Positions 2,570 to 31,926 are shown, counted from the first letter of the stretch. The stretch: 64,000 bases of DNA from a bacterium (GCA_963674695.2 CAXXGI010000003.1:800001-864000), one strand, 5' to 3'. Program-made: numbers and translations. Notes: generated by a model not told the origin, from the sequence alone.

Positions 2570-4666
2570 TCAGGTGGAGGTGAGGGATGGAGCCATGAAT
2601 ACCGTCGGCATGAGCGCATCATCAGCCATACCCACGCTCACCTCCATGGCATCGAGATCGGCGGCATCCCCCTCATATTCATCCGAACCGGCGGTCGCAA
2701 ACAGGATGCGCGCTCCGTCCCCCGGGTCATGCAACACCAAGGGGGCATCGAGCGAAGGCTGTCCCGTCCATACGCTTGGGCTCACAGGTGAAGATGGTGC
2801 ATTGCCGTTTCGGCGCCGCCTCATCGCCATCGCCTCCGAGTCCGCGATGCGCTCGAGCATCTCCAAACGCTCATCAAAAATGCGCATCCGCGCGACAATC
2901 GCACCGAGACCCCCTGCACCCCGCTCGCGTGCCGCGTTTATCTCACGCGCGACCTCCCGATGCATCGCATCGGCGGCGGCGTTTTGAATCGTTTGGGGAA
3001 GCTTCTCATAGCGCCCTGACTGTCGTGCGAAGTCATGGATGAATTGACCGAAACGACGGAACCATTCCGTTCGCGGCGGGAGAAAGCGATTGATCTCATC
3101 GAACACCTCGGCGCTCAACCTCCGCGCCAACACGGTGCGAACCGCTTTCAGATTGTAATACACCTGGGGCACGTCCGCCCCCGGCAGGACAACACGAAAT
3201 CGCAGACGTGACTGGCCTTCCAGGGAGGATTGCAAGAACTCGTCGAGTTCCTGGAGACGGTCGCGATCGAAGCCCGCATCGATGGCCTCGGCGACCGAAA
3301 TGAATCGCTGAACATCCTCTGCGGCATTCGCACGGATATAATCCATATCGCCCAGGGTCACCTCGCGCAACATGCGCCCCACAACCGCCAGTCGCCATGT
3401 GAGGTCTTCGACCTCGAAGGAACCGTTGTGTTCGCGAATATGTGCAATATTTTTGCTCACGATGTGCGTCGCATCGATCTCTGAAAAGAGAGGGAGATAG
3501 CATCGATGCCCCGCGACGACCTCCATCATGCCATCCAATATCTCATCGAGATGGTCGCGCAGGATGTATTTGAAATAGCGCCGCTTGCGACCCGCCTTCG
3601 TTCGCACCCCGTCATCGCGGATCCACTGGGCGAGAAAGAGATAGTCATCCGCCTCGACCGCAAGCGCATCATGCCGACGCGGCGGCGGCAAGAGAGCGGG
3701 AACGTCCGGCACGAAAGGCTCACCCTGCTCGCCCCTTTCGAGGAACGAGTCATGAATGACGCGCCCGTTGTAATCGCCATGCACATTGAGATGAATCTTC
3801 AAGCCGACGCGCATACGCTCGGCAACATAGATCGTATGCTCAACCCACCCCGGATATATCTTGTCTCCATAGAGGGCAAATTCCACGCCGCGCAGGTCGA
3901 GGTCCTTGGCCACCGCCAGGAGCTTGAGCACCTGGGCCTCATGAAGGAAACATTCCCTCTCCGACTGGATGCTCGGTATCGGACCAAAAACCGCACCAGA
4001 CCGCTGCATCTTGACCTCTACGAGTCGATCGCCGCTGACGACAGCATCTATCTCGGTCACGCTGGTCAGGAATTCGTACATCTGGGTTACCATAGAGTTG
4101 AACTGTTGGCGAAGCTCTCTGCGCAGGTCTGACGGAATCAGGTGCCACGGAACATCGACGCCCTGGCGCGCCAGCACCCGATTGCCCAGGGGAGCTTCCC
4201 GCTCCGCCAGGTCGGCGGTATGGCGCATCTCCTGGAGCGTCCCGGCAATAACCGATTCCTTTAGAGAGAGCAGGCCGAAGTGACCAAGGAACTTAGCGAC
4301 CCCCTCCACGTCGGCGTCGATGAGACGTCCAAAGAGATCCAGCGCAAACCCCAACCAGTCCGTTTGCGTGATCCAGGGCAAGCCCAACATACCCTGTAAC
4401 GCAGCATTCTCGACGAGTGCCTTTGCATTCCCCTTATTGAATGAGGCAAGGCGCGCGAGCGTCTCCCGCTGAGAAAACTCAAGAGGGGCAATGCGCCGAT
4501 CGCCGCTCAGGCCCAGCTCGCGCATCCAAGCCGAAACGACCTGTTCACGCTCGGGTGTGGGGTGAAGATCAGAACCGTCACCCACATCCGAAGATGGCTG
4601 AGCCCCTCCCGACACAGACATCCTCCCGGCTGCCCCTCCGCTCTCATCTGTGCGATCGATGCTCAT
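2570..4666 (-). CDS. Large orphan protein (698 aa) with a candidate PD-(D/E)xK nuclease motif and an acidic low-complexity C-terminal tail
   Basis: Long ORF between recognisable genes; EIDAVVSGDRLVEVK...Q..K motif; disordered termini. Confidence 0.75.
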   Translation of the reverse strand: MSIDRTDESGGAAGRMSVSGGAQPSSDVGDGSDLHPTPEREQVVSAWMRELGLSGDRRIAPLEFSQRETLARLASFNKGNAKALVENAALQGMLGLPWITQTDWLGFALDLFGRLIDADVEGVAKFLGHFGLLSLKESVIAGTLQEMRHTADLAEREAPLGNRVLARQGVDVPWHLIPSDLRRELRQQFNSMVTQMYEFLTSVTEIDAVVSGDRLVEVKMQRSGAVFGPIPSIQSERECFLHEAQVLKLLAVAKDLDLRGVEFALYGDKIYPGWVEHTIYVAERMRVGLKIHLNVHGDYNGRVIHDSFLERGEQGEPFVPDVPALLPPPRRHDALAVEADDYLFLAQWIRDDGVRTKAGRKRRYFKYILRDHLDEILDGMMEVVAGHRCYLPLFSEIDATHIVSKNIAHIREHNGSFEVEDLTWRLAVVGRMLREVTLGDMDYIRANAAEDVQRFISVAEAIDAGFDRDRLQELDEFLQSSLEGQSRLRFRVVLPGADVPQVYYNLKAVRTVLARRLSAEVFDEINRFLPPRTEWFRRFGQFIHDFARQSGRYEKLPQTIQNAAADAMHREVAREINAARERGAGGLGAIVARMRIFDERLEMLERIADSEAMAMRRRRNGNAPSSPVSPSVWTGQPSLDAPLVLHDPGDGARILFATAGSDEYEGDAADLDAMEVSVGMADDALMPTVFMAPSLTST

Positions 4667-4674
4667 ACCACCCC

Positions 4675-4702
4675 TTATCGTCGAACACCCTCAAAGGTTG
4701 CG
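4675..4702 (-). promoter_or_regulatory. sigma28 (FliA/WhiG)-like promoter
   Basis: Minus strand CGCAACCTTT-N10-GACGATAA, 8 nt before the ATG at 4666; identical spacing to two other copies in this window. Confidence 0.6.
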
Positions 4703-4790
4703 TCATTTGTAAAAAACCCTTTTCGCCATATCAACACGTCCATGACGTGACCACACTGTTCTCTTTTGAAAACGGTTTTTTCCAAATCAA

Positions 4791-4818
4791 CGCAACTTTT
4801 ACGGTGAGCATGCGATAT
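4791..4818 (+). promoter_or_regulatory. sigma28 (FliA/WhiG)-like promoter
   Basis: CGCAACTTTT-N10-TGCGATAT upstream of the ATG at 4847. Confidence 0.55.
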
Positions 4819-4846
4819 ACACATGCAACCAAACGCGAGGAGTCCC

Positions 4847-6109
4847 ATGTTTAAACTCAATATCATCGGCAACCCTCCCCCCACACAAGTGCCCACCGGT
4901 CTCCCTTTGGGACTCGAAAACATCGAAGCGAGCGACTCCGATGGCGCATTCGATAACACAGATTACATCGATATCGCAGCAGGAGGGGCAAGCTCATTTG
5001 AGTTTCAGGCCGAAACACAATCGCCACAGGCTATCATCGCGTCTCAAGTGCTCAAGAGCATCCGCAATGGCAGCGAAGCCCATGAAGCCCTTGCACTGAT
5101 GCCGAAATCAGGAGCAACGCCCGACGAAAACGTTACCGCCACGATAGAACGATTCATCCGTGATACCGAAGTGGAGGACGCAAAGACCCACGCGCGCGCA
5201 GAAGAGATTATCGAGTGGATGAAAGCGTTTTCCCAATCGATCGATCCCATCGCCGTTGGCTACAAGGGGACAACGTGGTGGAGCCGGTTCATTGGACGAA
5301 AGATCGATCCCGGCGACGTCCTTCGCGAAATCCTCCGGACCATCGACATCGAGGGACAAAACGGTGACGACGCCAAGACGTTCATCAGGCGATACACCGA
5401 CAGCCTCATCGCCAGAAGGGAAACCCTCCGGGAGCTCAAAGGGTCAATTGAAGAACGCGCCTTTCAGAACGCTGCCGTCACAGAACTTTTGAGTCGCATC
5501 AATAGGGGAATACGTGAGATGCAAGATGACCCTCTCAATGCCGACGATAATCGCCGACTCCAAGATGCACATGAGGAGGTCATCGCATGCCAGCTCGATC
5601 ACGGTGAATCGGCCACTCGCATCACGCAAAGCGCTTCCCGTACACAGCAGCTAATGCGCAAAATCAGCCAAGTCATCGACTCCAATAATCGAACCATAGC
5701 GACATTCGAGGCGATCATGCCCATCTTCCAGCAGTTGGTCGCACGCCTTCATAACCTCAACGAGAATGACAAACTGCTCCCGGCAACGAGTGCATTCCTG
5801 ACCATCGCTGTTCGTTCGAAGGGGAACCTGAAGGAGGAAGAAGCACTTCGGAGCATGTCGCCCGCCCACCCAATCATACACTACATTCAAAATCTCATCG
5901 GTGCAGCACAGCGTCTACAAGACGCCACCAACATCTTCGCCCAGTCCCATGAAGCGATGTCCAGGGCCTCACAAGAGAACCTCCCGAAACTCTCTCGCAT
6001 GATGACGATGCCGCACAAAACAAGCATACGCCTTGCCGACACGCACCCCACGAATGCAATCGGCACATCGAATCGAGCCACGCTTCCTGCGCCGAAGAAG
6101 AGAACGTAA
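4847..6109 (+). CDS. Coiled-coil protein resembling the TelA/KlaB toxic-anion-resistance family, with an acidic N-terminal leader
   Basis: RBS GAGGAG then ATG at 4847; IDP...KGTTWWSRFIGRK and QLMRKISQVIDSNNRTIATFEAIMPIFQQ recall TelA segments (LDP...GFLGKLFGK; QIRLIQNNN....IPLWK). Confidence 0.6.
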   Translation: MFKLNIIGNPPPTQVPTGLPLGLENIEASDSDGAFDNTDYIDIAAGGASSFEFQAETQSPQAIIASQVLKSIRNGSEAHEALALMPKSGATPDENVTATIERFIRDTEVEDAKTHARAEEIIEWMKAFSQSIDPIAVGYKGTTWWSRFIGRKIDPGDVLREILRTIDIEGQNGDDAKTFIRRYTDSLIARRETLRELKGSIEERAFQNAAVTELLSRINRGIREMQDDPLNADDNRRLQDAHEEVIACQLDHGESATRITQSASRTQQLMRKISQVIDSNNRTIATFEAIMPIFQQLVARLHNLNENDKLLPATSAFLTIAVRSKGNLKEEEALRSMSPAHPIIHYIQNLIGAAQRLQDATNIFAQSHEAMSRASQENLPKLSRMMTMPHKTSIRLADTHPTNAIGTSNRATLPAPKKRT

Positions 6110-6147
6110 ACGCACCAGATGAGGGGAGAATAACAAAGAGGAGACCC

Positions 6148-9100
6148 ATGTCATCGGTCATTCACCACATGACATCGCTGCCATTTGCATTGGCACCGGA
6201 CGCATCCGAGACGGATGTTGCCTTCGCGTATGCGGATGAAGCGATGGAGACAGAGGACTTCGACGCAAGCGCCTTTGTCGCGGAAGGTTCCGATGAAACC
6301 GGCATGGCGGCCTCGTCCTGGGGGTCCGAGTGGCATACGGCCACGCTTCTCAAAGAGAGTCCCGCATGGGTGAAAACGATCCCCCTCTCACGCAGAGACA
6401 TGACACCCGATGAGGGGGGACACCGGACAACAGCCGCATTCGCGCCGCCGCCGCCGAACACCGCGGTAAGACGAGCAAGCGAACAGGACGACAGAACCCT
6501 TCGGATGGTAATCAGAAATCTGATGGACGACTTCAATGTGCATACATCATCATCGATTGATATCAGGGGAAGAATCATTCACGCCCTCCCCTGGACTGAC
6601 GTTCGACCATTCTACATGGCCCTTCTTGTGCGAATCGCACAAGACCGTTACGATGGTTCGGCAGCTCAGTTCAAACAAGTCCTGCAATATGCCGGCTCTC
6701 ATTGGAAGCAGGAACGCCGCACCATCCTCGGTGCAGATACATTCGATTACAACGACGGTCACCCCCTCCCCTCCTCCGTCTTAGCAGATACAGACATCCA
6801 CCTCAACGTCAGGGATACGACCCAGCCATTCCTCGACGCCATCCTCCCACGTATTACGGACGATGATGCCATCGAACGGAAGCAAGCCATCACTGCCCTC
6901 ACGCTCATACTGGAATCTGCAGATGCGCACGGGGATAAATGCTGGCAAAGAACCATCATCAGCAGCATACGCGATTTCCGCCACAGCCAGGGTTTCCCCG
7001 CATCGCTCTTGGCGGATATTGCCATCCATGTGAGCCACCGTGATGCCATCGCACTCTTCACCGACATCATTTCCCCGCGCATGCATAGCAATGACCGCGC
7101 GTTACGAGAGGAAGCCTGCGCTGCCTTCACACGCGTGAAGAGACACGCCGACAAACACTGGCACCGGAATGACATCAAGCGCCTTGAGGGCGGCAACTCC
7201 ATTTCCAACAAACAGATCATTTCACCATCAGGAGATGCCACCTCCTCAAACGTCTCTATCAACATCGCCACCGTATTGAACGAGGCGGCCCCCATTGTAG
7301 AGGGAATGCTAAAAGAGAGCATGAGCATCACATCGGAGATCCACACATCCTTCACAAACGGCACTTCCGCCCACACCACACATATCACTCTCCATCCTCG
7401 ACACCCATCCCAAAAAGTGGATGCGCGGATTTCCGGGCCCGTCCGCACCCTCACAGATGCATCGCAGACCTCACGCCTCAACAACATCATTCCGCGCATC
7501 AACTGCGGCAATGCCAAGATTCAGCGTATAGCACGAGATGAGTTCCTAGGCGTATTGCAAGAGATGCATACGGAGGACAATCGAACGCACTCATGCGCCG
7601 CACTCACCCGTCTCCTCAATGAATCAAGCGATCTCCCCCGCGATTTTCTCATCCAGATCGCTGCGCTCGCACCAGAGGGAACGTTTGACAGCATCCTCTT
7701 TGGTTTCCTGAAGAAGAACATCGCTGCGCAATGGGACAAGAACGCACCCAGCCCCTTCCCCGACCAGATACCGGAAGGGAAGACGATCACCGCGATGATC
7801 GATATCGCCTTCGAACCGATCGAGGTGTATCGCTCATCGCTCAAGCAGCTCACCGATATTGTTTCGCGCGGACCGAAGGCAGCCGCAGAATTCGATTCAG
7901 TCCTCGATGAACACAACTTTTCACACCCACTCGACGGAATATATCTCGCAGAAAACCATACCCTCAAAAGGGCCTTCGCTGGATACCTCTCTCAAACAAG
8001 AGACACCTCATACGATGCATGGCACCCCCTTATGCAGATCAGCACGGAGGCTCGCCACAGCGTCCTCAAACCCCCTTTCCAACAAGCCCTGTCAACATTC
8101 GCCAAAAACAATACATCCCCTCACCTCATCCCCTTAAGTGTGCGACTCGCCCTTGAGCTCACCCCACGCACGCCGCATCTGACTCAATTGGCACATCACC
8201 TCTCTCACCAGCAGTGGGATGAGCTGGCCGGGCTTCTCCGGAACAGCATCCGTACGTTTGATGACACCGCACGCGATACCATCGCGGCCGAGTTTCTCCA
8301 TGCACACAATGATAGACACTTCAGCATGCCAAACCCATGCTATGCTGGCGCCCTCATCGCTGCGACACAAGCCGAGACACGCGCGAAGCTCTTGCGCATC
8401 CTCATCGAACGCCGGGCCTGGACAGAGATTCAGGAGCCCCTGAATCAGCTACGTGCAGCGGACACTCCGGATATTGACGACCTGAACGCGATCGTCCTGC
8501 AGGCCGCCAAGACGCAGACCGTTCCATTCGAACTCCTCGAGACCATTCCCGCTGCACACGAAGAATCCAAAAAGTGGCTCGACGCTGTCGGCTTTGGTCA
8601 GCAGGGCTCCGTCCACGAAGACCCCGTGCGATGGTATGAGATCAATACCGCGCAGGCCCTCATCGGATTCCTCGTCAAATGGACCTTCGCGCCCTCGATC
8701 GAATCGTCACCCCTGAGCCGTTTTCAGGCGCAGCGTGAGATGCGACGCGCCAAAACCACGCTCACAGAACTCGCGCTCGCCCATGCGCGCGGGGAAGGCC
8801 ACGGCGTCCTCACCATCCGCAATGTCGTGAATGCCCTGGCCAAATCGCTGGACCGTGATCCCGTCGGCGACCAGATCGAGGAGATCCTGGAGGGGGAGTC
8901 GAGCGAAGAGGCGCTTAAAACCCTGTTACGATCATCGCTGCCCACGCTCCTCATCGTCTGGCGCAAGCGCATGCAGGCGATGGCCTTCGACCCGCCGCTT
9001 CTTCACGAGGCTCCTCCTTCACCTCTGCGCCTCTTTACGGATGCGGCCAGCATTCGAAACAGAATGGACACGCTCGCAGCGGAGCAGGAAGAACCACTCG

Positions 9101-9393: not shown

Positions 9394-9489
9394 ATCACAG
9401 CACACCCCCCAAAACGAGGATGTCTCTTCCTGCCTGTGGATACATGAAATGAAACAATTATGAGAACCTGTCGGGGAAAGGGCTATAGC

Positions 9490-9560
9490 TGTCATTCCCG
9501 CGAAGGCGGGAATCTCGAAGCACTTGATAAATCGAGATTCCCGCCTTCGCGGGAATGACA
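9490..9560. repeat. REP doublet: perfect 29-bp inverted repeat TGTCATTCCCGCGAAGGCGGGAATCTCGA
   Basis: 9490-9518 is the exact reverse complement of 9532-9560; each arm is itself a hairpin. Confidence 0.92.
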
Positions 9561-9634
9561 AAAATCGGCGAAAGCGTCATTTCCCGGCAGACTCTCATGA
9601 CGGAGGATTCAATAGGGAAAGAGACGTCCCGCGG

Positions 9635-10666: not shown

Positions 10667-10704
10667 GGATGCTCGATTGAGAGTGATCGTTATAAAAAGC
10701 CGAC

Positions 10705-10756
10705 CTGGATCCCCGATTCAATCACTCCCGCCAAAGGCGGGCAAGCGGGGATGACA
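10705..10756. repeat. REP-like hairpin (GGATCCCC...GGGGATGACA) with a nested hairpin
   Basis: Same ends as the copies at 18409 and 40258. Confidence 0.8.
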
Positions 10757-10804
10757 ACACAAAAAGTACCTTGAACATTTCCCCAGGAGACGCCATGGCC
10801 CCTG

Positions 10805-10877: not shown

Positions 10878-10908
10878 GCCCTGGCATTTGCGCCTCAGTG
10901 ACCCGGCT

Positions 10909-11608: not shown

Positions 11609-11641
11609 CCGTAACTCGTAACTCGTAACTCGTAACTCGTA
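11609..11641. repeat. Heptamer tandem array, ~4.5 x TCGTAAC
   Basis: Directly visible; abuts the RBS of the HAD gene. Confidence 0.9.
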
Positions 11642-16092: not shown

Positions 16093-16163
16093 GAGAGCGC
16101 CTTCGTAACCGTCACCAGGGGCATTGTCAACGACAGCGCGTCGCAGAACGCAATCCCACAGCC

Positions 16164-16270
16164 GATGCCACGGTTTTGCCATCCCTTCCCACACCGCCCC
16201 TTCGAAGGAATTTGGAAATGCCATTATAATTCAAGCGATTAGAAACGACTCCCTTGGCCCGCCCCTTGCA
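16164..16270 (+). promoter_or_regulatory. sigma54 promoter module for the MFS transporter: candidate UAS, IHF site and -24/-12 element
   Basis: TGGCCCG-CCCC-TTGCA at 16255-16270 (GG-N10-GC); ATTCAAGCGATTA at 16229-16241 (1 mismatch to WATCAANNNNTTR); imperfect palindrome GATGCCA-N6-TGCCATC at 16164-16183. Confidence 0.75.
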
Positions 16271-20345: not shown

Positions 20346-23261
20346 ATGCAACCGATGACGAACTCCTTATCCGACTTTTCCGCCGATCCCCTCCACCGGG
20401 TCTATCAGCAGGCGCTCGATCTGCACCAGGAAGAACTCGAACTCGCTCGCGCCATTCCACCGCTCGCGCAAAAAAAGCGCGAGACCGATGCGTTCATATC
20501 ATTACAGAGCCAACAATCGATGGGGGGCAGATCACTCTTCGCCCCCATCGCGGGACCTCGTCTCTCCGCCATCGGTCGCGCACATGAATACGAGCTGCTT
20601 CTCTCCGAAAAGAAGGCGCGCCTTGAACTCCTGCGCGAACAGCGCCAGCAGACCGTCCTCGAACTGCTGACAATCGCCGAAGCCGAATGGATACCGGGCG
20701 ATCGAACATCCTCCGAGAGTCATCGGTTCAATGAACGAACGCGTCTGGCCCGTCTCGCCCTTCAATTCGGTTCGGAAGCGTTGGCCGCAGAGCAGCTCGA
20801 GCTCGCGGCCGACATCGCGCCTGATGCGGCCAGCGCCCTCTTTCTCAAACTGCGCGCCCATGCCCTGTCGACCGCGCCCTGGGACGGTCCGGATATCCTG
20901 TCCACCATCGCTGCTCTGCGTGATCGGGGCGATGAGCGCTGGCGTCTCCTGCTGCCGACCTATGCGCTCTCGATCCATCGACATCAGCAACGGGAGCAGA
21001 CAGATCCCAAGCGCATGGACGTCACTGAGGCCCACTTCCTCTCGCTTCTGCACAACCGACTCGACGCAAATAACGTCTTTGTGCCCCCGTTGTCGAGTAC
21101 CGAAACGCTGATGTGGCTCGACGTGCTCACCCAGATCGTTCGTCGAAAGGCCTCGAGCATTCCCGAAACCCCCCGTGATGAACGCGACGCCATCACCGAT
21201 GCAATCAGATCCATTACTGCCGACGCGTATCATCTGGCCTCACCCTTCTTCCAGTACTCCGACAACGCGGCCGCACCATTTCGGACTGAACTCGGTGCGG
21301 CAACCGTTCCGATCGATGTGACCGAACAGCTCTTCGCCCGCGATGATGTGTCCGGCGCAACTGACGTGCGCGAAGGGCTGGTTGCCTTTCTCGCGGAGGC
21401 GCACGTCTTCGCCGATATTGTGAGCGAACACCCGGCACGGGCGATCGAACAGTTCGACGAAATCAAAAGCAGATTTCCCGATACAAAAGCCATCGAAACC
21501 TTCGAACGTGGCATCTGCACACAGTTTGACCGGCTCTGCACCGATGGCAAACTCATCACCCGCCAGGACAAGGCATTCGAAGCGATGCTCACGACATCGT
21601 TCGGTCACATCGACGATCTGGACGCCACCTCCGAGCTGGGCCTCACCGCCGGAGGCGGTGCGGCCGGACTGCTGGCCTGCTACGGCCTGGGACTGTCCGG
21701 CGGCTTTGTCGGAGAAGGCATTGCCATTCCGACCTGCAGTCTGCTCTTCACCGGCGGCATGCTGACCGCCTGGGGAGGCGTACGCGGGTACAATATCTAT
21801 GCCGCACGCGAAGAGATCGCTGAATCCTCTCTCTCGGGATTGAGCCTGATCGATCCGAGCGCAGCGGCCCTGCGCGCGCAATCCCTTCCCATGGATGCCG
21901 GACTGATGGCGATGCTGGGGCTCATCGGCGGCGGTTTCAGCGGATCGGTGAAGTCAGCCGGACAGGCCGTCTATACGGGCACCATACAGCGCGGACTTGC
22001 TAAGGGCCTCGACGCCTATGCGCGTTTCATCAACCGTCCTTCGGTCCTGGTCGGCTCCGGGGTGCTCGCCGTAGCGGATGTTGGACTCGTCGACGCCGAC
22101 TATGATTTCGCGTGGGAGCAGGACTACGCCTTCGACGGCTTCTCCCATTGGTGGGGATTCATTCCGGCGACGATGGTCCTCGGCAATGCCGCGGCACAGA
22201 AGATTCCCTTCATCGCCCTAGATGCAAAGGGAAGCGCGGTGGCCACAATGGTGACCACCGGCATGCAGTTCTTCATCCAGTCCGACGGAGGCAGCGACCC
22301 GGACTATTTCGACTACAACCGGGCCTTGAGCCGTTACGCCTACTCCATGGTCGGCACCGCCGTCGGCAAGAAATCGCTGGGATACGTCGCCTCAAATCCA
22401 AAGAATGTCCTTCGTTGGGTCGGCACAAACGGCTCGAGCAATCCGGTGCTCACCCTCCGCGGAAAATTTCTCTTCGGCACCAGCAACATCCTGGCGATGG
22501 GCGCGATCAACTATGTCACCGCCGACGCGCAGGGTGTGGATGCCGACAACTCGACGATCGCGCGTTCGATCGACAAGGTGATCACCGAATTCGCTATCTC
22601 GCCGCTCCAGGCTCGACTCGGTTTCGACGGGCCGCTGGGGCTCCTCACGCGAAAGACACTCGGCTCATTGGTCGAGGGCGCCATCAATACGCTCTGTAAT
22701 ATGTACGAGGATCAGAGTCTCTATCAGAAACCCTTGCGCATCTATCTTGATACCGATCGCGCCGAACACGATCAGCTCATAAACGATCCCGACATGCGCC
22801 AGAAGCTCCTGTCCATGATGCGGCGTGGCACCATGGTGCGCGGTGCGAGCCATCCCCTCTCGCGCCGATTCTCCGAGGTGACCACCGAAAATCTCTTCCG
22901 CATCTATGCGAATCTCCCCTCCACGGAAAAAACTCAATACCACCAATTGCTCCGCCTGTATGTCGAAGACTGCGCACAAGGACAGCTGACCAAGGATGAA
23001 GAGCGAACGCTTCAGCTGATGATCGCCGCGGTCCTCTCGGACATCGGGCTCACGGTGCAGGACCACCGCAACATGCGCATCGACCTAATCAACCCCGACC
23101 TTGCCGCGACGGTAACGATCCCCTATAGAGATGCGCCGTCCACATCGATTCCGCTCACCGTCGATCACAAGCGTTTCTCGACGATGCTCAACAACGGCGA
23201 CTACGACAATCTGATCCCGGCGGTTCGAATCACCGTGCCATCGGCAGAAGAAAAACAATAA
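20346..23261 (+). CDS. Large orphan protein (971 aa): helical N-half, Gly-rich hydrophobic segments in the C-half
   Basis: Long ORF with host-like codon usage, 12 nt upstream of ppa; no signal peptide seen. Confidence 0.8.
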   Translation: MQPMTNSLSDFSADPLHRVYQQALDLHQEELELARAIPPLAQKKRETDAFISLQSQQSMGGRSLFAPIAGPRLSAIGRAHEYELLLSEKKARLELLREQRQQTVLELLTIAEAEWIPGDRTSSESHRFNERTRLARLALQFGSEALAAEQLELAADIAPDAASALFLKLRAHALSTAPWDGPDILSTIAALRDRGDERWRLLLPTYALSIHRHQQREQTDPKRMDVTEAHFLSLLHNRLDANNVFVPPLSSTETLMWLDVLTQIVRRKASSIPETPRDERDAITDAIRSITADAYHLASPFFQYSDNAAAPFRTELGAATVPIDVTEQLFARDDVSGATDVREGLVAFLAEAHVFADIVSEHPARAIEQFDEIKSRFPDTKAIETFERGICTQFDRLCTDGKLITRQDKAFEAMLTTSFGHIDDLDATSELGLTAGGGAAGLLACYGLGLSGGFVGEGIAIPTCSLLFTGGMLTAWGGVRGYNIYAAREEIAESSLSGLSLIDPSAAALRAQSLPMDAGLMAMLGLIGGGFSGSVKSAGQAVYTGTIQRGLAKGLDAYARFINRPSVLVGSGVLAVADVGLVDADYDFAWEQDYAFDGFSHWWGFIPATMVLGNAAAQKIPFIALDAKGSAVATMVTTGMQFFIQSDGGSDPDYFDYNRALSRYAYSMVGTAVGKKSLGYVASNPKNVLRWVGTNGSSNPVLTLRGKFLFGTSNILAMGAINYVTADAQGVDADNSTIARSIDKVITEFAISPLQARLGFDGPLGLLTRKTLGSLVEGAINTLCNMYEDQSLYQKPLRIYLDTDRAEHDQLINDPDMRQKLLSMMRRGTMVRGASHPLSRRFSEVTTENLFRIYANLPSTEKTQYHQLLRLYVEDCAQGQLTKDEERTLQLMIAAVLSDIGLTVQDHRNMRIDLINPDLAATVTIPYRDAPSTSIPLTVDHKRFSTMLNNGDYDNLIPAVRITVPSAEEKQ

Positions 23262-23897: not shown

Positions 23898-23979
23898 GTA
23901 TTTCCGTTGGACAATGACATTCTTGCACTCCCCTTTTTGTTCGGTGTAGGCTCTCCACCACCAAACAGGGAGATATCTG

Positions 23980-24669: not shown

Positions 24670-26105
24670 TGCGAACCAGCAAGCGCCTGCTCTGGCAACT
24701 CTATCCGATCAGCCTCATCTTCGTCCTCATCGCCGTCATCGCCTTCGGCGTGCTCGCCTATGGTGCGTTCACCTCATTCGCCAAGAGCACCACCGCCCGA
24801 AACCTCGAAACTCAGACGCTTCTCGTACGCGACCTACTGCGGCCTGCAATCCTGACCGATGATGACACACGGCTCCAGGCACGCTGTCGCTCGATCGGAG
24901 CAAAGATCGACACGCGCATCACCGTCATCGGTGAATCCGGGACCGTACGATGCGACTCACTTCACGATCCAGCGCACATGGACAATCATGCTGACCGACC
25001 GGAAGTGACCGCCGCGCTTGAGGGGCAAGACGGACAATCGATGCGCTACAGCGCTACCGCGCAGATGGAGATGCTCTACAACGCCCTGCCGCTTCGCCTC
25101 GACGACACACACATCGCCATCGTGCGCACATCGATGCCGATGGTGACCCTGCTGCACTCGCCGCGTCTGTTCGCCCTGACCCTTGCTGTGGCAGGCGTGC
25201 TCATCCTCGCATTGACAGCGATCTTCGCCTGGATCGCGACACGCCGCATCGCCCAACCACTGGGCGTCATTCAGGACGGAGCGCAGCGTTTTTCGCGTGG
25301 AGACTTGAGCTATCGTCTTCCGCGCATCGGCTCACGTGAATGCCAGACCATCGTCCATTCGCTGAACCAGATGGCTACAGAGATCGAATCGCGCCTCCAG
25401 ACCATCCGAAAACTCGAGCAGATGCGGCGTGAATTTGTCGGCAATGTCTCGCACGAACTCATGACGCCGATCACCGCCATCATCGGATTCGTCGAAACGC
25501 TACGCGACGGCGCCCTGGATGACCCCGACCGGGCACAGGATTTTCTTCGGATCATCGGACGTCACGCCAAACGGCTGCGCGCGATCGTGGGCGATCTGCT
25601 CAGCCTCTCGCGCATTGAGCAGGATGAGGAATCGAACGACATTCGATTAGAGTCGATCGTACTGGGCGATATCATCACCTCGGCCATCGAAATCTGCCGA
25701 CCCAAAGCGGACGATCAACAGATGACCCTCCTCACCGAAATCGATCCGAGCATCGAGATCATGGCCAACGCCATTTTGACCGAGCAGGCCATCGTCAACC
25801 TCGTCGACAACGCCATCAAGTACAGCGATGCAAACGACCGCGTCTGGATCCGAGCTCGACGAGAAGATAACGAGGTTCTCATCGAGATCGAGGACGAAGG
25901 CATCGGCATCCCCTCCGACCAGATTCCCCGCCTCTTCGAGCGATTCTACCGTGTTGAAAAGGCGCGCAGCCGTCGCCAGGGAGGTACCGGCCTCGGATTG
26001 GCCATCGTCAAACACATCATCCATTCCATGGGCGGCTCTATCGCGGTGGCGAGCACCCCGGGCGTCGGCAGCACCTTCACCCTCCATCTGAAGCCCTCAC
26101 CTTGA
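24669..26105 (+). CDS. phoR: Sensor histidine kinase, PhoR-like (2 TM, HAMP, HisKA, HATPase)
   Basis: NHADRPEV periplasmic motif, EFVGNVSHEL.TP, NLVDNAIKY and RFYRVEKARSR..GGTGLGL motifs; TGATG overlap with the regulator. Confidence 0.85.
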   Translation: MRTSKRLLWQLYPISLIFVLIAVIAFGVLAYGAFTSFAKSTTARNLETQTLLVRDLLRPAILTDDDTRLQARCRSIGAKIDTRITVIGESGTVRCDSLHDPAHMDNHADRPEVTAALEGQDGQSMRYSATAQMEMLYNALPLRLDDTHIAIVRTSMPMVTLLHSPRLFALTLAVAGVLILALTAIFAWIATRRIAQPLGVIQDGAQRFSRGDLSYRLPRIGSRECQTIVHSLNQMATEIESRLQTIRKLEQMRREFVGNVSHELMTPITAIIGFVETLRDGALDDPDRAQDFLRIIGRHAKRLRAIVGDLLSLSRIEQDEESNDIRLESIVLGDIITSAIEICRPKADDQQMTLLTEIDPSIEIMANAILTEQAIVNLVDNAIKYSDANDRVWIRARREDNEVLIEIEDEGIGIPSDQIPRLFERFYRVEKARSRRQGGTGLGLAIVKHIIHSMGGSIAVASTPGVGSTFTLHLKPSP

Positions 26106-26202
26106 CAAAAGCGGCGTATAACTGTTAGGACTCCCCGGATCAGACGTGCGTCGGATAATTTCCAGCGTTTCGCGACAGAACAAAAAAGAGGAGAAATTCC
26201 GC

Positions 26203-28482
26203 ATGAGTGACTTCGATCCTACCCGTCTCACCCCCCCCTTCATCACCTACATCAAGGACAACCGGAAGGCGATCGGACCGGATCGGGCCGATGCGCTGGC
26301 GAGCACCATCGGCCACCCTGAGGCCGCCTCGGAGCGAGCCCTTCTCGGGGCGATGGCCTTTCTGCAAGAAGGCGAGGCCTCAGACCATTTCACCCTCCAA
26401 GATCCCGTGAGCTATCACCTGCTCGTCGGGACGCTCAACGGAACCCTGGCGCTCCAGCGTCGCGCCCAGCGCTTTGCGACGAGCGCCGCCGCTGAACGCC
26501 GCGTCATGGACACGCTCATGAGCATCATGCGTCGGCACCTGGATCAGTATCCGCAGATCTCCTACCCAGAACACGAGGCCGCCTATTTCCTCGACCATTT
26601 CCGCCGATTTTTGCGGAACCTCGGACAGGCCGCCAACACGATCGACCTCAATGATCCGCAGATCGGTTACCTGACGCAGATGAGTCCCGATCTATACGCG
26701 AAGCACGTCCTCGACATCGGGCAGCTTCGACAGGATGCGGAACTCATCGAACAGGCCAAGGATCTCTCGGTCGCCATGCTCGAACTCAACGGGGGGTTGG
26801 GCTCGAGCATGGGGTTGGATCCGACGCAACACCACTCGAAGGCGACGGGCATCCTCATCCCGGTGACCGTCTCCACGGAGCGGGGCGAAATCAAGGCCAG
26901 CATGTCGATCATGGAGGCGAAGATGCGCACGCTGGCCGCGCTGGGCCAAAAGTTCAAATCCGTCCGCGTCTTCCCCCTCAACAGCACGATCACGCGCGAT
27001 GGCTTCCAGGCCTTCCTCGACGCCCCCACGGTGGAGCAGCGCGCCCTCAGTCGCACAGGGCTGACTAACCGCGCCAACCTCGAGTCCCGGGGACTGATCA
27101 TCGACGACGAGATCATCCAACACGGCTTCCCGAAGATAGATACGCGCACCCTCCTGCCGGTGAAGACCGGAAACATGGATACGGAATTGGGACCAGGCGG
27201 ACACGGGCAGATCCTCTACGAACTCTTTTCTTCGGGGCGTTTGGAGGAGCTGGCAAAAGCCGGAACCGACATCCTCGTCATCGGCAACGGCGACGGCAAA
27301 CAGGCCAAACCCGACCCCGCCATCGCCGCGAAGATCGCCCGGGATGGCATCCCTGCCGCGATGATCTCGACCGATCGCACAGCGCTCGATGCCAAGGGCG
27401 GCATCTTCGTCATCATCGACGGAAAGATTCAGATCATCGAACGCAACCAGGCCAAAGACACCGATGCCTTTGAAGCGATCGGCTTGAAACCCGACGAAGG
27501 ATCGCAGCCGTTCAACACGAATACCGTCTATCTCAATATTCCGAAGATCATTGAGCTGCTCACGGCGTACAAGGAGGAACAGGGCGAAGAGGCCCTGCGC
27601 GAACTGCTGCTCCCGACGACGATTGCAAACCACAAGGTCGTTACGGTTCATGGCCAGGCGATTCCGGTGCGCCATCTCGAAGGCGCCATCGGTTCCGTGA
27701 TCCTCAAACTCCCCGGCGTAAAAATCTTCAACGCCAGCGCAGACGATCGCTGGACTGAATTCACAGCGGCAAAGACGCCGGGCGATGTGGTCTATCTTTT
27801 CGACAGCGATGTCTTTCGCATCGATGCCGAGACCGGCGAGATGATCCCGCTCATCGACAATCCGATCCCGCCGAAGATCAAACTGACCGGGTGGAGTGGA
27901 TGGACGATGCTCCCGAAGACGCGTGAAGCCTTCGGTCGCCCCTCGATGAAGGATCTGCGATCACTCTCTATTTCGGGCAAGGTCCATCTCCGCAATGCGA
28001 TCCTGCGCGGCCATGTGGAGATCATCAATGAATATGGACATGGCGTACGCCTCAATGAAGGCCCCTATTGCTCCAACCTTTCCTATGACGAACAGAGCAA
28101 CGGCAAAAAACGCCTATTGCTCGAAAACGTTCGCCTTTACATCGATGCCGATGGAATATTGACCGTAACACCGCTCGAGGATCCGACGGGCGGAAGCACG
28201 CCGCCGGTTGCAAACGGTACGGGCGGTGAGGGCGAGAAGGCACCGGGAAACACGACCGGACAAGGTGCCGCATCGGCCATGGGCGCACCGCTCGTCGTCG
28301 AAGCGGCACATGACGTTGAAGCCGAATTCGTCGATGATACCGGCATGCCGGACAACCTGTTTCCACAGATGGATACGGGAGTTCCACTCGGACAAAGCTT
28401 CGACACGTCGTGGGAGAACTCTGCCGGGCTCTATGGCGCGGGCGCGGCGACGGTCCTGCCCACGGCCGGAATGTACATCTAG
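26203..28482 (+). CDS. Eukaryote-type UTP-glucose-1-phosphate uridylyltransferase (UDPGP family) with ~180-aa N-terminal extension and ~95-aa acidic tail
   Basis: LELNGGLGSSMG, PGGHG, NGD, DAKGG, FNTN, LEGAIG and F...KT motifs, plus the C-terminal PS...LRSLSISGKV beta-helix pattern; RBS GAGGAG. Confidence 0.85.
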   Translation: MSDFDPTRLTPPFITYIKDNRKAIGPDRADALASTIGHPEAASERALLGAMAFLQEGEASDHFTLQDPVSYHLLVGTLNGTLALQRRAQRFATSAAAERRVMDTLMSIMRRHLDQYPQISYPEHEAAYFLDHFRRFLRNLGQAANTIDLNDPQIGYLTQMSPDLYAKHVLDIGQLRQDAELIEQAKDLSVAMLELNGGLGSSMGLDPTQHHSKATGILIPVTVSTERGEIKASMSIMEAKMRTLAALGQKFKSVRVFPLNSTITRDGFQAFLDAPTVEQRALSRTGLTNRANLESRGLIIDDEIIQHGFPKIDTRTLLPVKTGNMDTELGPGGHGQILYELFSSGRLEELAKAGTDILVIGNGDGKQAKPDPAIAAKIARDGIPAAMISTDRTALDAKGGIFVIIDGKIQIIERNQAKDTDAFEAIGLKPDEGSQPFNTNTVYLNIPKIIELLTAYKEEQGEEALRELLLPTTIANHKVVTVHGQAIPVRHLEGAIGSVILKLPGVKIFNASADDRWTEFTAAKTPGDVVYLFDSDVFRIDAETGEMIPLIDNPIPPKIKLTGWSGWTMLPKTREAFGRPSMKDLRSLSISGKVHLRNAILRGHVEIINEYGHGVRLNEGPYCSNLSYDEQSNGKKRLLLENVRLYIDADGILTVTPLEDPTGGSTPPVANGTGGEGEKAPGNTTGQGAASAMGAPLVVEAAHDVEAEFVDDTGMPDNLFPQMDTGVPLGQSFDTSWENSAGLYGAGAATVLPTAGMYI

Positions 28483-28484
28483 GG

Positions 28485-28555
28485 TGTCATTCCCGCGAAG
28501 GCGGGAATCTCGCTTCTTACGGCACATCGAGATCCCCGCTTTCGCGGGGATGACA
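28485..28555. repeat. REP doublet (same family as 9490-9560)
   Basis: TGTCATTCCCGCGAAGGCGGGAATCTCG ... CGAGATCCCCGCTTTCGCGGGGATGACA. Confidence 0.9.
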
Positions 28556-28578
28556 AAGGCAACGTTCGTCATATTTCT

Positions 28579-28608
28579 ACGGCCTCCCGCTCTTCGGGGG
28601 GCCGTTTT
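28579..28608 (+). terminator. Probable intrinsic terminator
   Basis: ACGGCCTCCCG-loop-CGGGGGGCCGT followed by a T-rich tract. Confidence 0.6.
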
Positions 28609-28682
28609 CGTTTCTGCCCCCCCTTGCGTTTCGGGATGCGTTTCAATAGGGTTGCAGCCGAAACTCAGGACAAGGAGCCCTC

Positions 28683-30353
28683 ATGAAGATCGTCGAATGC
28701 GTTCCCAATTTTAGCGAAGGATGCGACCCCGCCATCATCGAAGCGATCGCGGATGCCGTGCGCGTCATTTCCGGCGTGGAGTTGCTCGACGTCGATCCGG
28801 GGGCGGCGACCAACCGCACCGTCTTCACCTTCGCCGGCCAGCCCGAAGCGGTACTGGAAGCAGCCTTCCAGGCGATCAAGACGGGCTCCGCGCTCATCGA
28901 CATGCGTCACCATAAGGGAGAACACGCGCGCCAGGGGGCCTGCGATGTCTGCCCCTTCGTGCCCATCTCCGACATGACGATGAAAGAATGCGTGGAGCTG
29001 GCCAAGAAGCTCGGCGCGCGCGTCGGCGAAGAGCTGGGCATTCCGGTCTATCTCTATGCCGAGGCGGCACAGCGGCCGGAGCGCGTGCGGCTGCCCGACA
29101 TCCGCGTCGGCGAATACGAAGCCCTTGAGGAGAAGCTGAAAAAACCGGAGTTCAAGCCCGATTTCGGCCCGACCGCCTTCAACGCCAAGGCAGGCGCCAC
29201 CGCCATCGGCGCACGCAACTTCCTCATCGCCTACAACATCAATTTGAACTCGACGAGCGTGAAGGTCGCCAAGGAGATCGCCTTCACCATTCGCGAGACC
29301 GGACGCCTCAAGCGCGACGCGGAGGGCAATCCCATCGTGAAATCGGACGGCACGAAGGAACGCGAGCCGGGGATGTTCACCGGCGTGCAAGGAACCGGCT
29401 GGCTCATCCCCGAGTACAACTGCGCGCAGATCACCGTGAATATCCTCGATCTGGATGCCGCACCCGTCCACCGTGTCTTCGACGCCTGTTGCGAACTGGC
29501 CACAAAACTCGGCGCGCGCGTGACCGGCAGCGAGGTCGTCGGGATGCTCCCCAAGCGCGTCCTCGTGGAGGCCGGCCTCTACTTCCTCACGAAACAGAAC
29601 GCCTCGACGGGGGCATCGGAAGCGGAGATCATCCGCACCGGTATCCGCTCGCTGGGGCTCAGCGATGTCGCCCCCTTCGATCCGCAGCAGAAGATCATCG
29701 AGGAGCGGTTCAAAAAGGCGGCACCGCTGGCGAACATGACGCTCATCGGCTTCACGCATGAACTCGCATCGAACTCCCCTGCCCCCGGCGGCGGATCGGT
29801 GGCAGCCCTTGCCGGTGCCCTCTCCGGCGCCCTCTCCTCGATGGTCGCCGCACTCACCTTCGAGAAAAAGGGATTCGAGGAGCATCGCGAGGAGATGGAG
29901 CGCGTGGGCGTCGAAGCACATGCACTCGTGGCCCAACAGCTCGCCGCGATCGATGACGACACCGACGCCTTCAACGCCGTGATGGACTGCTTTTCGATGC
30001 CGAAGCAGACCGACGAGCAGAAGGCCGCACGCACAGCCGCCATCGAAGAGGCCAACAAGAAGGCCACGCTCGAACCGCTGGGCACGCTCGAACGTGCGCC
30101 GGCGATGCTGGATCTGGCCAAGGCCGTCGCCGAACGCGGCAACCCGAACTCCCTCTCCGATGCCGGGGTGGCCGGCCTCATGGCCCGAGCTGCCGCCTGG
30201 GGCGCCTATTATAATGTTCTCATCAACCTGCAGGGGATTGCGGATGCGGCGTGGACGAAGGAGACCCGAAACCGTGCTGAACAAGCCCTCGCACAGGTCA
30301 CCGAGAAGGCCGTCGCGGTGGAAGCGTCTCTCACCACCGCGTTGCAGGGCTGA
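28683..30353 (+). CDS. ftcd: Bifunctional glutamate formimidoyltransferase / formimidoyl-THF cyclodeaminase
   Basis: ECVPNFSEG, NRTV.T, H.GEH.R.GA.DVCPFVP, GAR.FLIAYN, PAPGGGSVAAL and GNPNSLSDAGV motifs. Confidence 0.95.
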   Translation: MKIVECVPNFSEGCDPAIIEAIADAVRVISGVELLDVDPGAATNRTVFTFAGQPEAVLEAAFQAIKTGSALIDMRHHKGEHARQGACDVCPFVPISDMTMKECVELAKKLGARVGEELGIPVYLYAEAAQRPERVRLPDIRVGEYEALEEKLKKPEFKPDFGPTAFNAKAGATAIGARNFLIAYNINLNSTSVKVAKEIAFTIRETGRLKRDAEGNPIVKSDGTKEREPGMFTGVQGTGWLIPEYNCAQITVNILDLDAAPVHRVFDACCELATKLGARVTGSEVVGMLPKRVLVEAGLYFLTKQNASTGASEAEIIRTGIRSLGLSDVAPFDPQQKIIEERFKKAAPLANMTLIGFTHELASNSPAPGGGSVAALAGALSGALSSMVAALTFEKKGFEEHREEMERVGVEAHALVAQQLAAIDDDTDAFNAVMDCFSMPKQTDEQKAARTAAIEEANKKATLEPLGTLERAPAMLDLAKAVAERGNPNSLSDAGVAGLMARAAAWGAYYNVLINLQGIADAAWTKETRNRAEQALAQVTEKAVAVEASLTTALQG

Positions 30354-30373
30354 GGAATGCCGTTGAAATATCG

Positions 30374-30401
30374 CGCAACTTTTTTGGCCTGTCGCCGATA
30401 T
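30374..30401 (+). promoter_or_regulatory. sigma28 (FliA/WhiG)-like promoter
   Basis: CGCAACTTTT-N10-GCCGATAT, 10 nt before the ATG at 30412; the -10 element is 7/8 of GCCGATAA. Confidence 0.65.
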
Positions 30402-30411
30402 CTGCGGTACG

Positions 30412-31926
30412 ATGAATCGATCGATCGACAACGATACCAGCCTGGTCCTCAGCATCTTGAGCCTCGGCATCCGCTCGCAGGCCTTCCCTCCGCATCTGCG
30501 TCACCATATCGACGCCGCTCGAAATGAACTCGACCAGGGAAGACCACAGGGCGAACAATGCCGCGCCCTGCTCAAGATCTGGCAGGAATTCAAACGTCTT
30601 ACGTCAGGGAACGAACACCGCGATCCCGCGACATGCGCGCGCCAGGCATATGAGCGTTTCCGTCCGCCGCCCGCACCCGCCCTCATCGATGCGCACGTCC
30701 CGACCGCCGATACTTCGACGACCGAGTGGCTGCGCTGGGCGAAGGACGTCGCCTTCTCTCCGCTCTTTGTCGATGCACAGGCACAGCGCCTGTTCCATCG
30801 CGATCACGGCCAGCGTTCAAAGGAAGCCGAACGCGTCGCCTCCCAGCGCGTGCGACGCATCATCGGACAGCGCGTGACCACAGCCCTCATGGGACAGAAC
30901 ACGAGATCCGCCTCGACCCTCCCTCCCCCGAACAGTGACGCCTTTCTTCAATTGGCCGCCGAGCGTTTGGAGACGGATCCGCTGGCCCTGCTCATACGCG
31001 AAAAAACCGATCTCTGGAGGGTCGTCCTCGCACGGGTCTTCGCCCACGTGATTCGCACCACGCCATCTGCCGAGACCAACGATGGGGAAGAAGCACAGCG
31101 CATACATCTGAAAAACTGGTTTGACGCACTTGTGAAGATGCAATGGGACGCGAACGAAATCACCCGCATCGTGATGCATGAATGGAAAGACGAGAAGCGC
31201 GTACCGTTGGATGCGCTTGCACGACTTCGGCGTCTATCGCCGAGCGCGGTATCGCTCAGCCCGTTCAAGGGCCCACTCTCGGGACGCCTGCTCGCGCTCG
31301 AAATCCTGCGCGTGCATGGTTTCGATCATCACGCGTCAAAATCCGTTTTCCAGAAGAACCTCCCGCCGATCGTGCCGCAACGAACGCTCAAACAGCTCTT
31401 AGGCCATCTCAACCAAATTGAACGAAAGGAATCACCCTTCCGTTTCCGCGCGGCGAACGTCCTGTATTGGCACATGAAGCCGGACTGGGAGTTTATCACC
31501 TCGTTCGCACGGCAGGTGCAGCGCAGCAAGACCGCTCCCACGCTGAACGCATTTCTCGATCGCTTCTATGCCGTGACTCCCGACGATCTCATCGAACGCC
31601 TGCAGGCGTATCGAAAAAAGGGCATTCATATCGACGTTGCCGTCGATACCATCGCCGAGCGTTTTCCCGATGCCCGCCAAGCCCTGATGAAATCGGGACT
31701 CCTTGCAACCGCCGCCGCTCCGACCACAGCAGACCCCGAAGAGAACCCGGCGGAGATCGCCCAAACAACCGTCCTCCAACAAGCCGCCCCCGCCATCATG
31801 GACTGGGCCAACGACGCGGCGTCTTCCGGGGAAGATCTTCTTCTCGCCACCGACCTCGCACCGTCGGCGTGGATGGGATGCGCACAGCCTGCGTTTGCCC
31901 TCTCAAGCGCCCTCATCCTGCCGTAG
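30412..31926 (+). CDS. Orphan helical protein (504 aa) with an acidic Ala-rich C-terminal tail
   Basis: Long ORF filling the gap between ftcd and the tRNA; no motif recognised. Confidence 0.75.
   Translation: MNRSIDNDTSLVLSILSLGIRSQAFPPHLRHHIDAARNELDQGRPQGEQCRALLKIWQEFKRLTSGNEHRDPATCARQAYERFRPPPAPALIDAHVPTADTSTTEWLRWAKDVAFSPLFVDAQAQRLFHRDHGQRSKEAERVASQRVRRIIGQRVTTALMGQNTRSASTLPPPNSDAFLQLAAERLETDPLALLIREKTDLWRVVLARVFAHVIRTTPSAETNDGEEAQRIHLKNWFDALVKMQWDANEITRIVMHEWKDEKRVPLDALARLRRLSPSAVSLSPFKGPLSGRLLALEILRVHGFDHHASKSVFQKNLPPIVPQRTLKQLLGHLNQIERKESPFRFRAANVLYWHMKPDWEFITSFARQVQRSKTAPTLNAFLDRFYAVTPDDLIERLQAYRKKGIHIDVAVDTIAERFPDARQALMKSGLLATAAAPTTADPEENPAEIAQTTVLQQAAPAIMDWANDAASSGEDLLLATDLAPSAWMGCAQPAFALSSALILP

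Follow-up and report, generated by a model that had tools for sequence, protein, structure and literature searches.

Five genes in a 64,000-nucleotide stretch of DNA from an uncultured bacterium (the window; contig C3 of genome G000, G000:C3:800001-864000) encode proteins, here called P0001 to P0005, that each carry one terminal segment nearly free of Lys and Arg (K/R). The genome totals 3.03 Mb in three contigs (C1 to C3) with 58.6% G+C, and its completeness is rated 100%. An earlier note on this DNA had taken the five segments for a single portable export or chaperone-binding tag that works at either terminus. All five open reading frames (ORFs) and the peptides quoted for them were found (Table 1). 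The segments proved to be members of two genome-wide classes of disordered termini, one N-terminal and one C-terminal, rather than one tag, and both classes are statistically tied to a sigma28-like promoter.

Among the five proteins, P0004 is the sole member with a Pfam or NCBIfam family (UDPGP, PF01704; E value, 7e-33); P0001, P0002, P0003, and P0005 matched neither database. A search of 5.8e9 proteins retrieved nothing for P0001 but P0001 itself, and P0003 had zero relatives across 40 related genomes. By language-model comparison, the look-alikes of P0003 were HEAT/ARM-like clusters at 0.82-0.89, scores too low to be more than a lead, and the protein is possibly a HEAT/ARM-like solenoid. The look-alikes of P0001 likewise did not exceed lead level (best, 0.81; Tox-REase-7 cluster, 0.78), and the label "nuclease-like" given earlier to part of the cargo shrinks to this weak lead. 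The accompanying "TelA-like" label was dropped, as no Pfam match appeared at E values up to 0.1. Judging from the sequence, P0002 and P0004 most likely start at 4847 and 26203, respectively, inside longer ORFs. The UDPGP-family gene adjoins a formiminotransferase-cyclodeaminase gene (window positions 26203-30353), and relatives G017 and G015 (another family) have a formiminotransferase-like ORF and the UDPGP orthologue in the same fetched locus (L135 and L137). The pairing looks conserved, as judged from shared fetched loci rather than checked adjacency.

Over the terminal 70 amino acids, K and R make up 0-2.9% of the residues in the five proteins, compared with 11.6-12% on average in the proteome. 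Terminal runs that contain no more than one K/R reach 79, 115, and 82 residues inward from the C-terminus in P0001, P0004, and P0005 and 68 (counted from 4847) and 74 residues inward from the N-terminus in P0002 and P0003. Our gene set comprised 2219 calls, and the 1894 proteins of at least 150 amino acids were used for counts of terminal runs. Acidic K/R-poor runs of at least 50 residues were counted 52 times at the N end and 75 times at the C end; with 3-4% of all proteins carrying a terminal K/R-poor run of this length, such termini are uncommon across the proteome, not rare. The description of the segments as acidic holds for the shortage of K/R but not for a marked excess of Asp and Glu. 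Asp is slightly raised (7.6-8.8% versus 6.3%) and Glu is unchanged; the acidic look thus arises because K/R are missing, more than from additional D/E. Ala, Pro, Ser, Thr, Gly, and Met are raised in the tags, Phe additionally in the N tags, and K and R are near zero.

Frame 0 scored highest in 49/49 N tags and 40/40 C tags, which is a normal in-frame coding signal. An AlphaFold2 model of P0004 (six orthologues) has a confident core, and its residues 661-759 show no secondary structure at predicted local distance difference test scores of 25-38. An origin of the tails from tandem or heptamer repeats was rejected, as the tails hold no repeats. The five segments are thereby confirmed as real, coding, and not repeat-derived. 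Heptamer tandem repeats (ACTTGTG, TCGTAAC, and CGTAACT) do occupy gene spacers in the window, at 1441-1584 and 11610-11641.

The N class (P0002 and P0003) opens with about 14 uncharged residues that are Ser, Thr, Pro, Ala, or aliphatic (M-S/T-I/L-...-P...), followed by 30-60 mildly acidic residues with at most one K/R. The C class (P0001, P0004, and P0005) begins with a linker rich in S/T/P/G/N. A PLVV(E)-like word often follows, 51-65 residues before the C-terminus, and the remainder is a stretch rich in Met, Pro, Asp, and Phe that gives way to an uncharged hydrophobic end. This difference in build, together with BLAST and profile tests that connect none of the five, speaks against the idea of one shared tag.

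Table 1. Positions of the tagged proteins, their promoters, and the type III genes. Coordinates without a contig prefix count from the first nucleotide of the window (aa, amino acids; nt, nucleotides; PWM, position weight matrix score).
Feature	Position	Strand	Description
P0001 ORF	2570..4666	-	Orphan, 698 aa, N end possibly shorter; C-terminal tag
P0001 C-terminal tag	2570..2809	-	Last 79 aa (1 K/R) and stop codon
P0001 APLVLH word	2729..2746	-	57-58 residues from C-terminus; coordinates derived by hand
P0001 promoter, sigma28-like	4675..4700	-	CAACCTTT-N10-GACGATAA; PWM 25.2; 9 nt upstream of longest P0001 start
P0002-P0003 unit promoter, sigma28-like	4794..4818	+	AACTTTT-N11-GCGATAT; PWM 25.0
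P0002	4847..6109	+	Orphan, 420 aa from ATG 4847 behind GAGGAG
P0002 longest ORF	4823-6109	+	428 aa
P0002 N-terminal tag	4847..5050	+	68 aa, 1 K/R
P0003	6148..9393	+	Orphan, 1081 aa, 39 nt downstream of P0002
P0003 N-terminal tag	6148..6369	+	74 aa, 1 K/R
P0004	26203..28482	+	759 aa, UDPGP-family (PF01704) enzyme; N-terminal extension and C-terminal tag
P0004 longest ORF	26146-28482	+	778 aa
P0004 C-terminal tag	28183..28482	+	Residues 661-759, predicted disordered, and stop codon
P0004 APLVVE word	28285-28302	+	
P0005 promoter, sigma28-like	30376..30401	+	CAACTTTT-N10-GCCGATAT; PWM 28.1; 11 nt upstream of P0005
P0005	30412..31926	+	Orphan, 504 aa, C-terminal tag
P0005 C-terminal tag	31678..31926	+	Last 82 aa, at most 1 K/R, and stop codon
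sctV	C1:140901-143066		Adjoins N-tagged promoter-driven orphan
sctU	C3:761006-762082		
Main type III cluster	C3:4-20 kb		TPR chaperone-like gene (C3:5119-5661), sctJ, FliA/WhiG-family sigma gene, FliG-like, sctL, sctN
Main type III cluster, further genes	C3:4-20 kb		sctO-like, sctQ, FliO-like, sctR, sctS, sctT

Together, the two modules mark about 40-70 proteins, and 27/48 of the tagged proteins scanned have no Pfam family. The N-tagged set includes glucan enzymes, namely a GH77 4-alpha-glucanotransferase (MalQ), an alpha-amylase with CBM48, and a GT5 glycogen synthase (GlgA), as well as FBPase_glpX, a PPDK_N fragment, a metallophosphatase, a SET-domain protein, a methyltransferase, and a 923-amino-acid sigma70-like protein. 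Among the C-tagged proteins are an alpha/beta hydrolase, a pentapeptide-repeat protein, three HATPase_c proteins, and an ABC1 kinase. Ten consecutive same-strand genes at C1:234723-285232 all encode a PLVV/Met-rich tail, and three of their products are 3209-3763 amino acids long and have no Pfam family; a 2900-amino-acid C-tagged gene product is encoded next to the Tad cluster. One further ORF (C2:526741-565167; about 12,800 amino acids) ends in 75 residues that are K/R-poor yet Cys-rich, unlike the other tails.

Sequence words account for little of this resemblance. Among the pairwise echoes reported in the earlier note, TGQ..PLV and LPx[GA]L..AS[DE][ST]DxAF are present and each restricted to its two named proteins. 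GSDE (26 occurrences) and [DE]TGM (14 occurrences) are dispersed over the proteome and were rejected as shared echoes, their scatter being at chance level. The proteome contains six matches to [AT]PLV[VLI][EHD], of which four belong to tailed proteins, P0001 and P0004 among them, at a distance of 54-64 residues from the C-terminus. In 7/40 C-tag candidates, PLV[VLI] is found 48-72 residues before the C-terminus, versus about 0.08 expected, an expectation that is our own arithmetic from 67 matches in about 0.87 million residues for a pattern partly defined post hoc. When leave-one-out profiles of 11 tails were anchored on PLVV, three tails took first rank, four came near the top, and four were missed. 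When the five segments were searched against the proteome by BLASTP, one match was notable, between the N tag of P0002 and C1_383690 (E value, 0.006). In the N segments, the dipeptide F-D was found in 15/27 versus 5.7 expected from shuffles (z = 4.8; maximum of 300 shuffles, 4.3). On this evidence, the segments mostly appear to hold no motif beyond composition, the PLVV-like word being the one element that recurs.

P0001, P0002, and P0005 are each preceded by CGCAACTTTT-N~11-GCCGATAA, and four of the five proteins lie in units with this sigma28-like promoter, as had been claimed. The -10 box, of the GCCGATAA type, agrees with the sigma28 consensus; the -35 box, CGCAACTTT, departs from it. A weight-matrix scan retrieved 186 sites at a score of at least 18 (versus 8 in reversed/complemented controls) and 160 at a score of at least 20 (versus 3). 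A same-strand gene start falls within -40 to +300 nt of 139/186 sites, at a median of 30 nt, and a flanking C-G-C that the seed pattern did not require is kept in 54-58/65 sites. In all, the promoter marks about 130 transcription units. The sigma gene (C3:8530-9399) has its best match in TIGR02479 FliA_WhiG, at 132 bits against a cut-off of 189.6. Sites also occur upstream of the type III cluster genes C3:4428-4970 and C3:7680-8168, the latter directly upstream of the sigma gene, and their positions suggest an autoregulatory loop. The N-tagged orphan that adjoins sctV has a sigma28-like promoter as well.

Two further groups of promoter-driven genes deserve mention. A Cys-rich family of at least 10 paralogues (N-terminal ..RRQC..DP.R..C..VKDC..) lies nearly always directly behind a sigma28-like promoter and has no K/R-poor tag; its members are found at C2:9243-11094, C2:82879-84240, C2:91412-92812, C3:180885-182243, C3:205690-206775, and elsewhere. 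The sigma70-like gene at C3:147921-150692 (923 amino acids) encodes sigma70 regions 2-4 at the C end and an N-terminal tag-like acidic region, and its sigma28-like promoter is among the best scoring (29.2).

The tags and the promoter coincide far beyond background. With unrefined start sites, acidic K/R-poor N-terminal runs of at least 50 residues were present in 19/116 promoter genes versus 33/1778 others (odds ratio [OR] of 10.4; p = 3e-11), and the corresponding C-terminal runs were present in 13/116 versus 62/1778 (OR of 3.5). We then defined a mirror-image rule for both ends. Of the outermost 14 residues no more than one may be charged, of the outermost 50 no more than one may be K/R, and positions 15-60 must contain six or more D/E; Sec-like proteins were left out. 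Under this rule, N tags occurred in 17/114 promoter genes versus 32/1730 others (OR of 9.3) and C tags in 10/114 versus 30/1730 (OR of 5.4). The same rule applied to random interior windows gave no enrichment (0-1/89 versus 12-14/999), nor did interior K/R-poor runs (OR of 1.2), and no protein carried an N and a C tag together. With operon mates included, 25/49 N-tagged and 11/40 C-tagged candidates lie within promoter units. Several thresholds were tried, and the direction of the result remained unchanged throughout, with some counts inflated by paralogues (e.g., the run at C3:386-408 kb). The tags thus emerge as genuine, as specific to protein ends, and as statistically associated with the sigma28-like promoter.

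The promoter pattern recurs in 41/41 genomes of the class searched, with 5-63 matches each versus 0-2 in controls. In G001, from another genus of the same family, a downstream ORF was present at 27/30 fetched sites and began with an N tag in 14/27, a count given without a background rate for G001 and with heuristic start sites. In six relatives, the UDPGP core is conserved, with divergence immediately past it: the orthologue of G005 has a K/R-free Met-rich tail, that of G006 a short uncharged one, that of G004 a K-rich one, and those of three genomes none. Among eight related ABC1-kinase giants, the one in G010 ends in a tail of similar style and the one in G016 in a variant, five have none, and in one the frame runs off the locus. 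An uncharged peptide containing F-D-A-F likewise opens one orthologue of the tagged enzyme of the amylase family. Tags thus sit on unrelated cargo and have been gained or lost on orthologous enzymes, and in this evolutionary sense the "portable" of the earlier note is borne out.

The delivery system that the earlier note left uncharacterized has a candidate in a type III export apparatus, whose genes are dispersed over at least three loci (Table 1) and include the putative sigma28-type gene within the main cluster. SctV matched TIGR01399 at 793.7 bits (cut-off, 692), and SctU matched PF01312 at 385.5 bits and TIGR01404 at 351.8, slightly under the cut-off of 358. The FliP, Bac_export_3, and Bac_export_1 families were found for SctR, SctS, and SctT. 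SctN passed TIGR02546 (625.1 bits versus 604.75) as well as the FliI clade 2 model; SctL, a YscO-like protein, and FliN/SctQ were found, and SctJ passed PF01514 while staying under the cut-off of TIGR02544. By these family assignments, the genome encodes these parts of a non-flagellar type III secretion system (injectisome): the export gate (SctV, SctU, SctR, SctS, and SctT), the ATPase complex, the sorting platform, and the SctJ ring. The closest SctV sequences come from metagenome-assembled genomes labeled Archangium sp. or Deltaproteobacteria (53-54% identity), with Chlamydiales at 47-48%.

Three secretin matches were found in the genome, namely GspD in the type II secretion system (T2SS) cluster, a PilQ-like protein in a type IV pilus-like cluster, and the secretin of the Tad cluster; the GspC of the T2SS is of the "delta" type. 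Flagellin was not found in the genome, and no FlgM, FliS, FlgN, or FliT family was detected in the type III cluster. VirB4 (PF03135), TssC, and phage sheath proteins were likewise not found in the genome. The pilus and T2SS ATPases scored far under the cut-off of the DotB model, and Dot/Icm-specific families were not searched. The best HlyD-type candidate reached 35.3 bits with TIGR01843 (cut-off, 208.65), in a search that did not extend to ABC and TolC components. The tails do not have the build of exosortase, sortase, or rhombosortase signals, as the rule that selects them admits no more than one K/R within 50 residues of the C-terminus, and they end uncharged. A TLC nucleotide transporter, which would have hinted at intracellular life, gave no match in the genome, and the control genomes were equally silent.

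We read both tag classes as targeting modules of proteins that belong to the sigma28-type regulon of this flagellum-derived type III apparatus, a reading that we place at a probability of roughly 45% and under which we infer that the tagged proteins are exported. They would then be candidate cargo of a needle-less type III machine. The regulon would be tied to the apparatus much as in flagella, where sigma28 turns on late export substrates. The N module would be the export signal proper, recognized by a receptor of the machine, and the C module may mediate docking or chaperone binding, as happens with flagellar late substrates, or carry a signal for a coupled outer-membrane step, e.g., through the Tad pilus. 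The chaperones of flagellar late substrates bind C-terminal regions. In flagella, once FlgM has been exported, sigma28 activates the late substrates, and substrate-chaperone complexes dock at FlhA (PMC7911332). Type III substrates of Pseudomonas syringae have an aliphatic residue or Pro at position 3 or 4, no acidic residue in the first 12, and more than 10% Ser in the first 50, compositional rules that are not strictly required (PMC3338616). The two positional rules hold jointly for 38/86 N-run proteins versus 358/1758 others; P0003 follows all three rules, and P0002 (from 4847) follows two, with Ser at 8% (by eye). Glycogen enzymes of Chlamydia are type III substrates (PMC4829429), which provides a precedent for the tagged MalQ, amylase/CBM48, GlgA, and UDPGP enzymes.

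A number of results weigh against type III targeting. BLASTP of the five segments against each other returned nothing at E values up to 50, and leave-one-out profiles of 10 C tails recovered 0/10 above reversed-sequence decoys. P0001 and P0004 are among the four tails missed by the PLVV-anchored profiles, which after composition correction brought no tail to prominence. The F-D enrichment was not replicated in G001 (1/14 versus 1.96 expected), and F-D/A-F was dropped as an N-tag motif for that reason. P0004, the exception among the five, has no sigma28-like site upstream; 24/49 N-tagged and 29/40 C-tagged candidates lie outside promoter units, part of them housekeeping false positives such as DnaK; and just 27/114 promoter genes pass the mirror-image rule. 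The regulon also takes in Sec-type genes, lipoprotein genes, and the Cys-rich family. Small acidic chaperone-like neighbors are not enriched next to tagged genes (7/89 versus 221/1755 others). No dedicated type III secretin, SctC, was found in the genome, and Pfam and NCBIfam scans of the main cluster, in which several small ORFs are family-less, returned no needle, gatekeeper, or translocator family. With neither a secretin of its own nor a needle or translocon family in the cluster, the apparatus has no known outer-membrane route. To our knowledge, C-terminal type III signals are no established kind. Finally, the gene calls, start sites, promoter matrix, and tag rules are our own heuristics.

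This gap at the outer membrane also speaks for tags that are real, selected, and co-regulated but serve a role other than type III export. They could be signals for another route, be it vesicles, the T2SS, an ABC exporter, or the Tad/Kil-like pilus, or regions that dock on prey or host proteins after delivery, or degron-like elements that hold the proteins in check. In Myxococcus, a Tad-like Kil pilus and a needle-less type III secretion system (T3SS*) cooperate in prey lysis, with effectors and signal given as unidentified in that study (PMC12075869). Here, the Tad cluster is flanked by the 2900-amino-acid C-tagged protein and by promoter-driven genes, and the C class has the layout of linker plus module that is typical of sorting signals, on giants of 2240-3763 amino acids. 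Nonpolar C-termini are, moreover, classic protease recognition features. Against such roles stand the lack of an HlyD-type fusion protein over the cut-off (35 versus 208 bits) and of the terminal basic cluster seen in exosortase/sortase-type signals; the only regulatory link found is to a sigma factor encoded within the type III cluster. We consider another role rather doubtful on balance.

The segments might even have no common function and be the ordinary disordered ends of young, fast-evolving, lineage-specific proteins, with a promoter link that stems from a regulon rich in such genes. P0001 and P0003 are without relatives, 27/48 tagged proteins are without a family, no motif can be aligned, F-D failed to replicate, and K/R-poor ends of at least 50 residues occur in 3-4% of proteins. 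Such ends would not be expected to show an enrichment limited to termini, with interior windows and runs flat, nor a tag at exactly one end, the same build in another genus, or PLV[VLI] at its set distance in 7/40 C-tagged proteins. Tags also sit on old, conserved enzymes (GH77, GT5, amylase, and UDPGP), and we regard the absence of a common function as unlikely. Still less probable is the strict form of the earlier proposal, i.e., one portable tag read by one receptor at either terminus. A single mirror-image rule does find both classes, which are similar in composition, both promoter-enriched, and never together. However, the PLVV word, the S/T/P/G linker, and the richness in Met are confined to the C class, the N class tends to follow N-terminal type III compositional rules, and no sequence similarity connects the N and C segments of the five proteins in BLASTP.

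Should targeting to the type III apparatus be correct and the tags be export signals, they would supply a targeting code and allow cargo prediction in uncultured relatives. For a type III-like machine, a targeting module at the C-terminus would be a novelty, and the tagged glucan enzymes would parallel Chlamydia in an unrelated lineage. The promoter and the two modules together yield a concrete candidate list for substrates of needle-less type III machines. A limited literature search retrieved nothing that ties a sigma28 regulon to non-flagellar or needle-less type III substrates in this kind of bacterium. A bolder idea, and in our estimate quite a long shot, is that the needle-less flagellum-derived apparatus here, and by extension the T3SS* of the Myxococcus type, reads a disordered, K/R-free, mirror-symmetric signal at either end of its substrates. 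If true, substrates would be engaged from the N- or C-terminus, and the sigma28-type regulon together with the tags would define the first effector repertoire and targeting code for such machines, with exported glucan-metabolism enzymes and giant proteins in that repertoire.

We note several other features of the window. A region of low G+C (45% versus about 58%) at 37539-39242 (and 38001-40000) holds an AAA_15/AAA_21 (AbiEii-like) ATPase gene, which is flanked by hut genes and the ribosomal protein operon and looks like an inserted defense-type gene. At 13108-16224, on the minus strand, a 1038-amino-acid fusion joins a periplasmic phosphonate-binding domain to a sigma54-interaction AAA+ domain and adjoins genes for an MFS transporter and a Na/Pi cotransporter-PhoU protein. 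A 971-amino-acid ORF at 20346-23261, on the plus strand, has a strong coding signal and no Pfam or NCBIfam family, tag, or sigma28-like site.

The two modules can be compared with several known systems. Type I signals are uncleaved modules of about 50-60 residues at the extreme C-terminus, often on very large acidic proteins, poorly conserved, and with a hydrophobic end. The C tags resemble these in length, position, poor conservation, hydrophobic end, and giant carriers; they differ in being rich in Met and Pro, which are said to be avoided in type I signals, and no HlyD-type protein exceeded the cut-off. As in Chlamydia (PMC4829429), housekeeping-type glucan enzymes occur here in a genome with a type III system, and terminal peptides come in addition. 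Unlike Chlamydia, the bacterium belongs to another lineage, has a much larger secretion and pilus repertoire, carries one of the glucan-enzyme tags at the C-terminus, and shows no evidence for a eukaryotic host.

Like N-terminal signals of the P. syringae type (PMC3338616), the N class is uncleaved and compositional, with an uncharged start, raised Ser/Thr/Pro, and a putative dedicated alternative sigma factor. In contrast to those signals, it has a K/R-free acidic stretch of 30-60 amino acids and a sigma factor of the FliA rather than the HrpL type, and no needle or secretin was found. With flagellar class 3 late substrates (PMC7911332), the tagged proteins share putative sigma28 control and disordered termini, and the cluster keeps FliG-like and FliO-like genes; unlike in flagella, no flagellin was found, and the would-be substrates are enzymes and giant orphans, not axial proteins. 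A parallel in machinery is the T3SS* of Myxococcus xanthus (PMC12075869). There too, an export gate and a sorting platform are present, a secretin, needle, or translocon was not found, and the genome has a Tad cluster. The word "sigma" does not occur in that paper; in the genome studied here, by contrast, the type III genes lie at three or more loci, and the sigma28 regulon and the tags offer candidate substrates.

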